A stretch of 64,000 nucleotides of DNA from an uncultured Alphaproteobacteria bacterium (GTDB lineage Bacteria; Pseudomonadota; Alphaproteobacteria; RF32; CAG-239). Positions 61,609 through 63,567 of the stretch are shown here, piece by piece (position 1 is the stretch's first letter; each line of letters begins with the position of its first letter). A model generated the notes under the pieces. It searched no databases. It saw only the letters and a list, made by a program, of their open reading frames with translations, and had not been told where the DNA came from. Location: assembly GCA_944391445.1 (NCBI GenBank), contig CALXTL010000007.1, positions 6,996 through 70,995 on the forward strand, written 5' to 3'. Position numbers and translations under genes: made by a program.

Positions 61609-61637
61609 AAAAAACCTCCGCAAGCGGAGGTTTTTTT
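61609..61637. terminator. Terminator after accC (island left boundary)
   Basis: AAAAAACCTCCG-caag-CGGAGGTTTTTTT. Confidence 0.88.
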
Positions 61638-61724
61638 GGATGCGCGGCTTAAAACAATTATCGGACTAAAAACTATGATGAGTTTCAACAACTTTGTTAT
61701 AAAATTGAACTTTTCAATAGTTAA
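61637..61724 (+). repeat. Recombinase-tail/att-like repeat copy 1
   Basis: TGGATGCGCG...AATTATCGGACT; reads NNYRTKNYDEFQQLCYKIELFNS*. Confidence 0.65.
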
Positions 61725-61808
61725 ATCTCCAATTCTTAACGTTAAAACTTAATTGCTTTTTAGTTTTTTTATGTTTAAAATTAAGAAAACAGAAGAAAGA
61801 GAAACATA

Positions 61809-62066
61809 ATGGTTTAAGAAAATAAGTTAAATATCACAAACCAGATTGAATTAAATAAAGCTGAAGAAAAGCTCAGTAAAGAAAAGGCTGTCGCTGAAGT
61901 GGCTGCAAATGTTGGAAAATTCTTAAAAAGTCCGATTATTTCACAAAAAAGAGACATTTTGAAATTAATATTATCGGACTGCAAAACTGATGGAAAAAAT
62001 CTTTGTTTTTCAATAGGTAAGCCATTTGATAAGTTGCTAAAAACGCCAGAAATCAACAAATGGTGC
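61809..62066 (+). pseudogene. Fic N-terminus remnant fused in frame to a serine recombinase C-terminal remnant
   Basis: MV*ENKLNITNQIELNKAEEKLSKEKA (Fic-type start with a TAA at codon 3), then QKRDILKLILSDC..DGKNLCFSI.KPFDKL.....KWC. Confidence 0.55.
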
Positions 62067-62226
62067 CGCTGGCAAGAAGGGGTACTCCCGCAAAAGCGGG
62101 GCCTCCTCGCGTCGTAAGCCTCAAACTTCGCATTTCGCTAATCTGTGCGCTAAGCTCAATGCTCGCTTTCGCCAACTACCCGCTCCGGACTTGCGTTTGC
62201 CCCCGCAAATTCGTTCTTGCTACATT

Positions 62227-62267
62227 ACCATGAAAAAAGCCTCCTTAAGGGAGGCTTTTTTCATGGT
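62227..62267. terminator. Bidirectional terminator hairpin
   Basis: ACCATGAAAAAAGCCTCC-ttaag-GGAGGCTTTTTTCATGGT. Confidence 0.8.
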
Positions 62268-62362
62268 GCGCGATACTGTGCAATTATCGGACTAATGATT
62301 ATGAGGAATTTAAGGATATGAGTAGGAAGATTGAGGTACTTCGTGACATTGATGTCAGTTAG
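62264..62362 (+). repeat. Recombinase-tail/att-like repeat copy 2
   Basis: TGGTGCGCG...AATTATCGGACT; reads WCAILCNYRTNDYEEFKDMSRKIEVLRDIDVS*. Confidence 0.7.
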
Positions 62363-62429
62363 TTAAGTTACTTATTTATTGCTTCAAAAAAAGTTCTGCT
62401 TTTAAAAGCAGAACCATTGGTTATTTTCT

Positions 62430-62630
62430 TCAGATGGGAAAATCGCACCAATTGTTTGAGCAATCTATTGCTTCATGCCCATCAGCCAAACATTTTTCCA
62501 TGCAGTTTTTCTCGGTATCGTCAAATATTGAAAAGCCGATGACAATAGCAATCAATATCAATACGATAAAGCAAATAACTGTTAAACTGATTTTAAAAAT
62601 ATTCAAAATATGTTTAGCTATCTTCTCCAT
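62430..62630 (-). CDS. Small single-TM Cys-rich protein (66 aa)
   Basis: MEKIAKH + TM helix + CMEKC...C...WC; start overlaps the upstream gene's end by 13 nt. Confidence 0.6.
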   Translation of the reverse strand: MEKIAKHILNIFKISLTVICFIVLILIAIVIGFSIFDDTEKNCMEKCLADGHEAIDCSNNWCDFPI

Positions 62631-63241
62631 CTGTTGTTCCTGTAATCTAAATCGTTTAACCATTGTCTACAACTTTTTTGCGGATTATTCAAGCCATATT
62701 GTATTCCCTCAATATTATTCGCCATATCTTTTGCTGAATCATCCCAAGCTTCGCCGAATGATAAAGGATTTGACCTATTGCATAATCCTACTTTATTTCC
62801 AATATTGCCGATTTTATGATCAAAGGCTTTGCAATAAATATCTTTTCCTTCTTTTAACATACCGGCTCCAAGCGAGAGTGCAGCAGGAAAATAACCACCT
62901 TGGGCATTTAAACACATTCCTAATCGATGAGCATAATTGTCATAGCCGTCTTTTTTTACTTTATCCATTTCATCTTTTGCAGCTTTTAGATTGCCTGCAA
63001 CTGTCCCCATTGTCTGTCCGAAATCATATACAGCTTCTATTGGATTAGGGTATTTTTGTTGTAGTTGTTTTAGTTCATCAAGGTCAAATCTGGTTTTTAG
63101 CTCGTCATGCAGACTCATATTGCTAAAATCAGGCGTATTTGGATATTGTTCTAACAGCTTGGCCAACCGTTTTTTCTCATTAATTTTCTTCATTTCTTCC
63201 ATATAACGCTGGAAATCGGTTTTATTATCATTATCAAACAT
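62618..63241 (-). CDS. Serum amyloid A-like domain protein
   Basis: AKDEM...GYDNYAHRLG...AQGG and DSAKDMANNIEG align by eye with SAA motifs; AAGGA RBS. Confidence 0.65.
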   Translation of the reverse strand: MFDNDNKTDFQRYMEEMKKINEKKRLAKLLEQYPNTPDFSNMSLHDELKTRFDLDELKQLQQKYPNPIEAVYDFGQTMGTVAGNLKAAKDEMDKVKKDGYDNYAHRLGMCLNAQGGYFPAALSLGAGMLKEGKDIYCKAFDHKIGNIGNKVGLCNRSNPLSFGEAWDDSAKDMANNIEGIQYGLNNPQKSCRQWLNDLDYRNNRWRR

Positions 63242-63483
63242 TTTTAAATCCTTTTTATCAAATTAAAATATATTTACGTATTAAATAATAGGTAAATTAG
63301 GTTAAATACATATCTAAGATAAAAAGGTAACTCCTCTCAATTTGTGTTTTATAACAATATAATTAATTTTTTGAGCATTCTTTTATCTATACTAAACTTA
63401 TAGAACAAAAAAAGAACATTGTAAATAGCGCTACAAACTTATTAACAACTTTATTTTGAATACGGCGGTGGTTAAACAATTTA

Positions 63484-63567
63484 TGGTTGTGGTTTTTGTT
63501 GTGCGATTATCGGACTGAAAATTATGAGGATTTTAAGGAATTGGGAAGAAAAATTGAGGCAATTTAA
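63484..63567 (+). repeat. Recombinase-tail/att-like repeat copy 3
   Basis: TGTGCGATTATCGGACT; reads LCDYRTENYEDFKELGRKIEAI*. Confidence 0.7.

Follow-up and report, generated by a model that had tools for sequence, protein, structure and literature searches.

A probable stack of small defence islands bounded by putative detached ends of a large serine recombinase in an uncultured alphaproteobacterium

In Myxococcus phage Mx8 (IntP/IntX), the attachment site of the mobile element (attP) lies inside the coding sequence of a tyrosine integrase. In archaea, the "suicidal" SSV-type tyrosine integrases carry the attachment (att) site inside the integrase gene, and integration partitions that gene; the relevant passages of the source call this design exclusive to archaea (PMC8371274). 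In the integration-dependent immunity of mycobacteriophages, attP is described as lying in the repressor coding sequence, and integration alters the C-terminus (a degradation tag is lost), which constitutes a switch (PMC3694055). The ssrA islands of Dehalococcoides (DsiB/DsiA) are described as serine-recombinase islands in tandem behind this tRNA-like gene, with ~20-bp repeats of its 3' end as their borders (McMurdie 2011, PMC3146451), and the same account reads those islands that lack a recombinase as cis-mobilizable elements (PMC3146451). Here we describe a 64,000-nt stretch (the window) of contig CALXTL010000007.1 (C7) from an uncultured Alphaproteobacteria bacterium (RF32; CAG-239; assembly GCA_944391445.1, 1.45 Mb in 25 contigs, ~46% G+C). 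The part downstream of accC is very probably the outer portion of a stack of small defence islands that belong to one large serine recombinase (LSR) family and lie between accC and tRNA-Thr(GGT). Short repeats in this array appear, from their sequence, to be the detached C-terminal ~30 codons of an LSR whose crossover site is inside its own gene.

The decamer TTATCGGACT occurs on the + strand at 61658, 61971, 62284 and 63507, that is, four times in 1.9 kb, as the first-pass annotation had reported, and no other exact copy is present in the window, where base composition predicts ~0.1 copies in 64 kb. Assembly-wide there are seven copies, six on C7 inside 3.5 kb and one on a second contig (C24). 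Translation also confirmed that the copies at 61658, 62284 and 63507 fall in diverged ~90-bp coding-like repeats, hereafter tails, which read in one frame as [ND]YRT..Y[DE][DE]F... and then stop; the copy at 61971 lies within a recombinase remnant and in a different frame, and an extra tail with the decamer is located 1.1 kb past the window end. Tail copy 1 (61638..61724, + strand; NYRTKNYDEFQQLCYKIELFNS before the stop) appears to be a decayed scar of the right-end attachment site (attR), in which TGGATGC replaces ATGGTGC, one nucleotide is inserted and a stop precedes NYRT by two codons; the same tail (NYRTKNYDE[FL]QQLCYKIELFNS) is contiguous with an LSR body in P0003 and P0019. Tail copy 2 (62263..62362, + strand), an attR, begins with ATGGTGC and GCGATACTGTGCAATTATCGGACT and is translated as WCAILCNYRTNDYEEFKDMSRKIEVLRDIDVS up to its stop, the repeat proper being (WCAILC)NYRTNDYEEFKDMSRKIEVLRDIDVS. 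Tail copy 3 (63484..63567, + strand) is an orphan that has neither a preceding hairpin nor ATGGTGC and reads (WLWFLLC)DYRTENYEDFKELGRKIEAI before its stop.

We then examined the selection acting on 27 distinct tails. For codons 5-17, the ratio of nonsynonymous to synonymous polymorphism (pN/pS) was 0.43, as against 1.27 in both other frames, and since these codons lie outside the 25-bp half-site, this value points to protein-level selection. The YRT codons showed almost no synonymous change (pS 0.026), which therefore indicates a constraint at the DNA level, that is, a DNA motif. Purifying selection in the reading frame would also suit an independent small-peptide family, and the first-pass annotation had itself named a generic dispersed repeat, unrelated to island ends, as a possible refutation of its reading. 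Both ideas are highly improbable, since the tails in attR copies have no start codon and meet stops shortly upstream, the seven decamers of the assembly are all at this locus or in the LSR adjacent to tRNA-Thr, and every tail found in relatives is either fused with the body of an LSR or lies upstream of one at tRNA-Thr.

The recombinase remnant at 61818..62066 (+ strand) comprises the C-terminal 83 codons of an LSR and ends ...EINKWC, and its DNA is 87% identical to the LSR 3' end beside tRNA-Thr on C24. The end of the remnant at 62066, and the continuous frame obtained when 62066 is joined to 62270, both held up on re-examination. The full-length members among its 115 homologs measure 514-548 aa and carry the PF00239, PF07508 and PF13408 domains (resolvase, recombinase and zinc-ribbon), so that they show the catalytic, recombinase and zinc-ribbon parts, the last with a coiled-coil insert, of an LSR. 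After KWC, ~25 of the 115 (17 by a strict motif) continue straight into the tail (AILC.YRT..Y..F...), which is accordingly the true C-terminus of intact LSRs, as had been anticipated. Another 31/115 end in R and a stop, 26/115 in R[WQ]QESDLRPRHYQ and a stop (with two more that have EWC in place of KWC), and 3/115 in RRKESDFRP..., while 3/115 run into a GC-rich unit, like the window remnant; the remaining homologs are fragments or have unrelated ends. Integrated copies end in KWC and a peptide read from the antisense of tRNA-Thr(GGT), in agreement with the earlier suggestion that integration replaces the C-terminal tail.

The AlphaFold2 model of a full-length tail form, P0041 (99-sequence alignment; mean predicted local distance difference test score (pLDDT) 90.9), predicts a fold that matches the solved LSR structures of SPbeta, phiC31, Bxb1 and LI, with the tail forming two helices (residues 509-522 and 524-544, pLDDT 80-90). 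A related ...W...[LM][DE]EFE... tail is present in distant LSRs of the genus (33-38% identity), in intact genes away from tRNAs. Separately, six metagenomic proteins (P0015, P0031, P0032, P0033, P0081 and P0087) have a DpnII-like, C5-methylase, NERD, N6-methylase, NgoFVII-like or DUF domain fused to the LSR C-terminal part; their break points differ, and they may be either cargo-recombinase deletion joins or assembly chimeras.

The att sites were then compared in 35 related LSR loci from gut Alphaproteobacteria metagenome-assembled genomes. In 24 of the 35, the LSR 3' end overlaps a convergent tRNA-Thr(GGT), and in three further loci a GC-rich unit lies between the two. The tails of these loci are found 3.6-9.5 kb upstream, most of them directly after a terminator hairpin and (A)AATGGTGC. 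When distinct junctions were sorted around (A/C)ATGG|TGC, all four site types appeared as the predicted arm combinations, namely 5 attP-like junctions (LSR body joined to tail), 23 empty chromosomal sites (attB; 12 true and 11 pseudo-attB), 21 left-end sites (attL; 15 at a tRNA, 3 more assigned there by eye, and 3 at a pseudo-tRNA end) and 20 attR (hairpin arm joined to tail arm), with a terminator hairpin at the junction position in all 20 attR of the relatives. The TGG in ATGGTGC, a conserved Trp codon, is the antisense of the tRNA CCA end, and the arms diverge straight after TGC; therefore, the crossover falls inside ATGGTGC, which places it in the recombinase 3' end, where the first-pass annotation had proposed it.

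In the window, the junction at 62060..62078 (- strand) is of the attL type and combines ATGGTGC with the final 18 nt of tRNA-Thr(GGT) in antisense, in this case belonging to a pseudo-tRNA end; the same sequence stands at C24:5880-5897, where the real tRNA-Thr has its 3' end. By contrast, CGCGCACCA, which had been likened to a tRNA 3' end, turned out to be the attP arm, and the true tRNA-end fragment is 62061-62078. The terminator hairpins noted ahead of tail copies 1 and 2 are real. The one at 62227..62267 is of the tRNA-Thr type and provides the B-type arm of junction 2, and an equivalent hairpin directly follows tRNA-Thr in L004, L005 and L044. Such hairpins are the terminators of tRNAs or pseudo-tRNAs and make up the attB arm.

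TGGTGC and TCGGACT are 17 nt apart in attP versus 12 nt in attB. If the T of TGG is taken as nt 1, CGGAC falls at nt 25-29 of the tail (attP) arm and at nt 20-24 of the tRNA (attB) arm, where it is the T-loop. In serine integrases, attP is reported to carry the motif bound by the zinc-ribbon domain (ZD) 5 bp further from the centre than attB does (Rutherford 2013, PMC3783163). The 5-bp outward shift of CGGAC matches this hallmark, which makes TTATCGGACT the predicted P'-arm ZD motif. The decamer at 61971 is included in an inverted pair, AGTCCGA-N38-TCGGACT (61929..61980), in the LSR coding region. An identical pair lies in non-coding DNA in L001 (5778-5828) and, beside a GC-rich unit, in L005 and L011, and the pair recurs 60-130 bp left of the crossover, in coding LSR or in non-coding DNA next to a pseudo-attB. 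It may be an accessory binding site or an attP-like site.

We also analysed a wider LSR clade through 99 representatives, each from a 50%-identity cluster. Trp occupies the KWC column in 80 of them. What follows this column is an antisense-tRNA peptide (..DSN/GSN/DLN/ESN..) in 51/99, a stop within four residues in 15/99, a tail with [FILVYM]R[TKN] at W+5..9 in 20/99 (six from the window LSR family) and another sequence in 13/99. A convergent tRNA or transfer-messenger RNA (tmRNA) overlaps the LSR end in 59 of 88 diverse loci from many phyla; the antisense CCA is an in-frame Trp codon in 46 of these 59, and the targets comprise at least 17 tRNA species and tmRNA. In a tRNA-Arg(ACG)-targeting family (30% identical), the attP-like and integrated forms share TGGCGCGCC, and CGAAC is at nt 25-29 in attP versus nt 20-24 in attB, as is CGGAC in the window family. 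Both families thus have a shared centre and a ZD motif 5 bp further inward in attB, and the agreement of the two positions indicates that the tails' R-T reflects, in coding form, a T-loop mimic. Nine candidate-phyla-radiation loci (L142, L148, L152, L155, L160, L162, L173, L174 and L185) have Leu for Trp at the junction, and their tRNA calls end without CCA, which fits tRNA genes that do not encode CCA.

The sequence following the remnant is a GC-rich unit of ~190 bp (62067-62262), a spare carrier of attB. Within it, a GC-rich structured element (GCel; 62080..62190, - strand, covariance-model match E 4.6e-25) takes the T-loop position of a pseudo-tRNA-Thr 3' half. The element is dispersed, with BLAST matches to 62079-62226 in 32 of 36 genomes of the genus, and by covariance model GCel is present in 85 of 151 genomes of the order, in 14 of 20 genera that all belong to one family. 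In relatives, it lies 61-82 nt behind tRNA-Thr, Gln, Asn, Ser, Glu and Arg genes (at least 6 tRNA species) or in tandem. The unit consists of a terminator, a short leader hairpin, the T-stem 5' strand with TTCG/TCCG, ~110 conserved nt and the last 17-19 nt of the same tRNA, a layout found in 24 of the 28 copies whose fetched flank includes a tRNA. In the conserved part, 28 pairs are predicted, compensatory changes affect 13 of these, and the G-U pairs fall on the tRNA-sense strand. Rfam returned no family for 62079-62226 at E <= 1. A tmRNA or tRNA in the GC-rich stretch was rejected, as ARAGORN and Rfam were negative and the stretch is unlike the genome's own tmRNA; so was a TnpB-type (IS200/IS605) guide RNA, with PF07282 above cut-off in 0 of 31 genus genomes and in 8 of 14 control genomes. 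Further copies of GCel were noted in L004, L007, L008, L010, L013, L014 and L080-L099.

The 3' end of GCel and the terminator that follows it form a second attB, and LSR use of this site was found in L024, L031, L044, G075, G078, P0060, P0067 and P0088 as well as in the window. It is conceivable that the unit is not chromosomal but an island-carried end piece or a tiny non-autonomous element, so that each arrival brings a new landing site and the array grows in this way. The tandem units behind tRNA-Gln, Asn and Glu, each with a 17-19-nt copy of that tRNA's 3' end, do resemble repeated site-specific insertion, the two units of this genome are 98% identical, and the unit in L005 abuts a P'-type arm in place of a tRNA end. 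However, units are present in genomes in which no clade LSR was detected (for example, G032, G014, G008 and G005), 24 of the 35 LSR loci adjoin tRNA-Thr with no intervening unit, intact attP-like junctions have none, and no recombinase is linked to the units, which makes island carriage doubtful. The L005 unit itself (1483-1500; G025) is followed by a P'-type LSR tail arm that is 5-6 nt longer, not by the tRNA-Thr end, which gives the impression that the element has inserted into an attP or attR arm there or recombined with one.

The first-pass annotation had held that no real tRNA is present. Indeed, ARAGORN found no tRNA or tmRNA in the window, but the anchor is a real tRNA-Thr(GGT) on C24, into whose antisense the end of an LSR open reading frame (ORF) runs. 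Of the intact LSR copy of this genome, only two parts are assembled, aa 1-29 at the end of C7 and aa 463-513, running into tRNA-Thr, at the end of C24. These gene halves suggest that C7 continues into C24, in which case the whole accC-to-tRNA-Thr interval (~12 kb plus the gap) would be island DNA. The left chromosomal flank is accC (biotin carboxylase; 60240..61589, + strand, 449-aa ORF), and its bidirectional terminator hairpin (61609..61636, an inverted self-match) serves as the B-type arm of the outermost junction. From there, the array runs through the decayed junction, tail 1, the LSR remnant, ATGGTGC with 18 nt of the tRNA-Thr end, GC-rich unit (a), a hairpin, tail 2, two ORFs, orphan tail 3 and UzuA, and then through an AGTCCGA-N38-TCGGACT pair, a terminator with CTGGTGC and core, GC-rich unit (b), a hairpin, a further tail, a fused C5/N6 methyltransferase, a type II restriction enzyme, a Rep-like ORF and the LSR N-terminus at the contig end. 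An LSR remnant to the left of the second core was considered and rejected; the terminator, CTGGTGC and core found there look like an intact, empty pseudo-attB.

In the mechanism that we propose, the LSR gene crosses its own attP, with crossover in ATGGTGC. Integration would join the LSR body to antisense tRNA (attL), giving a protein that ends in KWC with R and a stop or in KWC with RWQESDLRPRHYQ and a stop, and the last ~30 codons would be left as tails at the far island end, behind the tRNA terminator hairpin (attR). The TTATCGGACT of the P' arm copies the tRNA T-loop, 5 bp further out, and the GC-rich pseudo-tRNA units (terminator, short leader, ~110-nt structured element and last 18-19 nt of tRNA-Thr) would supply extra attB sites. 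On this scheme, a decayed island I (from tail 1 to the LSR remnant) would occupy pseudo-attB (a), the middle segment would begin at tail 2 and have lost its recombinase end, pseudo-attB (b) would apparently be unoccupied, and island III (tail, restriction-modification genes and intact LSR) would sit in the true tRNA-Thr site. The order of these integration events is a reconstruction, and the LSR is presumably still active. By gene content, island I keeps 83 LSR codons, the middle segment none, and the LSR of island III is intact, so that att-bounded segments without a full recombinase stand beside an element that has one, the arrangement of accretion arrays with candidate cis-mobilizable elements. 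The integron-like accretion first suggested, taken as growth at one site, gives way here to islands in several attB copies that derive from the GC-rich pseudo-tRNA units, one of which looks empty.

The cargo between the tails was annotated with Pfam and PADLOC. Two overlapping ORFs of 77 aa (membrane-like) and 207 aa (62430..63241, - strand) gave no Pfam match above cut-off and no PADLOC match. The 3' part of a 277-aa GIY-YIG gene (63833..64000, - strand), which extends beyond the window, represents UzuA-type defence cargo (PADLOC UzuA 3.6e-50; Pfam GIY-YIG). Island III encodes an 840-aa fusion of C5 and Eco57I-like N6 methyltransferases, a 402-aa type II restriction enzyme, a 183-aa Rep ORF2/G2P-like ORF and a fragment of 85 aa that weakly matches a SAM-like integrase, its cargo spanning L001 6288-10005 and 11489-12040 (C7:72287-76004 and 77488-78039). 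This annotation and the relatives together support the earlier statement that the tails mark where islands end, follow terminator hairpins and divide variable cargo.

Short cassettes between repeats with nearby hairpins are also what an integron-like or tyrosine-recombinase cassette system would show, with attC-like repeats and hairpins as folded-strand substrates, and the 85-aa fragment past the window has a match to a SAM-like integrase N-terminal domain, albeit at E 5.5e-4 and below cut-off. Such a system is nevertheless very improbable here, since no intI-type gene was seen among the scanned ORFs of the array, the repeats look like coding sequence and, in other genomes, run on from LSR bodies, and the hairpins vary in sequence and are ordinary tRNA-gene terminators. 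A second alternative is that the array arose mainly through duplication, unequal crossing-over and deletion in one or two integrated islands. The segment of core, GC-rich unit, hairpin and tail start at 62052-62349 recurs at C7:71876-72172 with 93.6% identity across 298 bp, tail 3 is missing a B arm, and the middle segment has no attL, all of which would be expected of such a history. However, outside the att arm the tails diverge strongly, and their matches in other genomes are to different tails, the cargo differs among segments, and junctions 1, 2 and 5 have the exact B|P' structure of 20 independent attR, so that we consider duplication as the main source of the array unlikely. The LSR island system remains our preferred reading of the array, which shows the defining features of such systems that sequence can reveal.

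We next compared the locus across samples by using assembled metagenome contigs, which are unable to show circles or rare forms. Seven studies of chicken-gut and bird metagenomes contain the locus DNA. Contigs of four runs from four studies were compared with the locus, and in two of these runs (X9 and X11) a contig connects 62066 with 62284 via 14 other letters, GGCCTGCTATGCGG. This join translates in frame as KWC-GLLCGYRT and omits the GC-rich unit; the same cargo follows at 99.4% identity, and the X11 contig skips the UzuA gene. The locus is thus variable; invariance across strains would, by the first-pass annotation, have refuted its reading. Behind accC, no tail, LSR, GC-rich unit or tRNA-Thr was found in 29 loci of genus relatives. 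Synteny differs within the genus: in relatives (locus L053 of G011), accC is convergent with a SEL1-like repeat gene, which in this genome lies on C24, several genes from murA and tRNA-Thr. The idea that accC was the ancestral neighbour of tRNA-Thr was rejected; the 29 relative loci did not support it, and in G011 accC faces a homolog of a C24 gene. Elsewhere in the assembly, the last 40 bases of contig C3 are adapter-like; we take them to be sequencing-adapter sequence and probably an assembly artefact.

Several observations weigh against the island-stack reading. The link between C7 and C24 rests on two gene halves with no sequence spanning the gap, and accC is not beside tRNA-Thr in the 29 relative loci. 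The junction of accC and tail 1 is non-canonical (TGGATGC, +1 nt), the middle segment has no matching attL, tail 3 lacks a B arm, and the second pseudo-attB looks empty. The middle segment has attR without attL, so that deletions, or excision from site (b), must have occurred; one island per site is thus too simple a history. Three attL sites of the junction catalogue were misfiled under the other arm by regular expressions and were those reassigned by eye. The left half-sites show little symmetry with the right half-sites, so that the position of the central crossover dinucleotide within ATGGTGC is presumptive. Finally, recombination was not seen directly, and no candidate for the directionality factor that LSR excision requires was identified.

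If the LSR island reading is correct, coding-like repeats near tRNA genes are explained as detached integrase ends, and exact island borders and att sites can be read from sequence. Uncharacterised serine integrases are in demand for genome engineering, and the att sites of hundreds of them could be predicted by one rule: TGG equals CCA, and the T-loop motif occupies nt 25-29 of attP but nt 20-24 of attB. The free and integrated enzymes differ at the C-terminus, which makes the tail a candidate natural switch, the directionality switch proposed in the first-pass annotation being a hypothesis of this kind. Furthermore, small defence islands (UzuA, restriction-modification) stack in gut Alphaproteobacteria, and a widespread RNA-like element without a known family lies behind tRNA genes. 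As a tentative proposal, the many-phyla LSR clade might be built to use the 3' end of any tRNA or tmRNA, the conserved final Trp codon of the ZD being the antisense of CCA and the [FILVY]-R-T of the tail the protein shadow of the attP T-loop mimic. Integration would then swap the two-helix tail for tRNA-antisense residues, so that the free-circle and integrated enzymes would differ and could act as a state sensor that biases integration over excision. The stacking of defence islands in this bacterial family would then depend on a structured-RNA unit, not described before, which lies within pseudo-tRNA 3' halves and multiplies the landing sites.

In the literature searched, supplements aside, we found no account of this intragenic-attP/tRNA-end design for serine integrases. 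The window family resembles the LSRs of phages and islands (A118/LI, phiC31, Bxb1 and SPbeta) in its resolvase, recombinase and zinc-ribbon/coiled-coil architecture, in its predicted fold, in its short att sites and, as far as the cited description goes, in a ZD motif 5 bp closer to the centre in attB. The differences from those LSRs are that the 3' coding end of the integrase itself contains attP, that the extreme tRNA 3' end is targeted, with the Trp codon antisense to CCA, and that integration would replace a conserved helical tail. Integrons likewise have arrays of short cargo cassettes between repeats, but here there is no IntI, attI or attC, and the repeats appear to be halves of an LSR attP. 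As in the SSV-type integrases, the att site lies in the integrase gene; however, the enzyme of the window family is a bacterial serine recombinase that would lose only its last ~30 residues, whereas the SSV-type tyrosine recombinase is described as splitting into two inactive halves. Integration-dependent immunity affects a repressor and Mx8 involves a tyrosine integrase, whereas here it is the C-terminus of an LSR that would change. The tandem ssrA islands of Dehalococcoides appear, from the part of the account that deals with them, to be the closest described relatives in behaviour. Those passages describe insertion midway along the T-loop and a second small recombinase, and a split of the integrase gene is absent from them (PMC3146451), whereas in the window family the crossover would lie at the CCA end and the repeats would be protein-coding tails.

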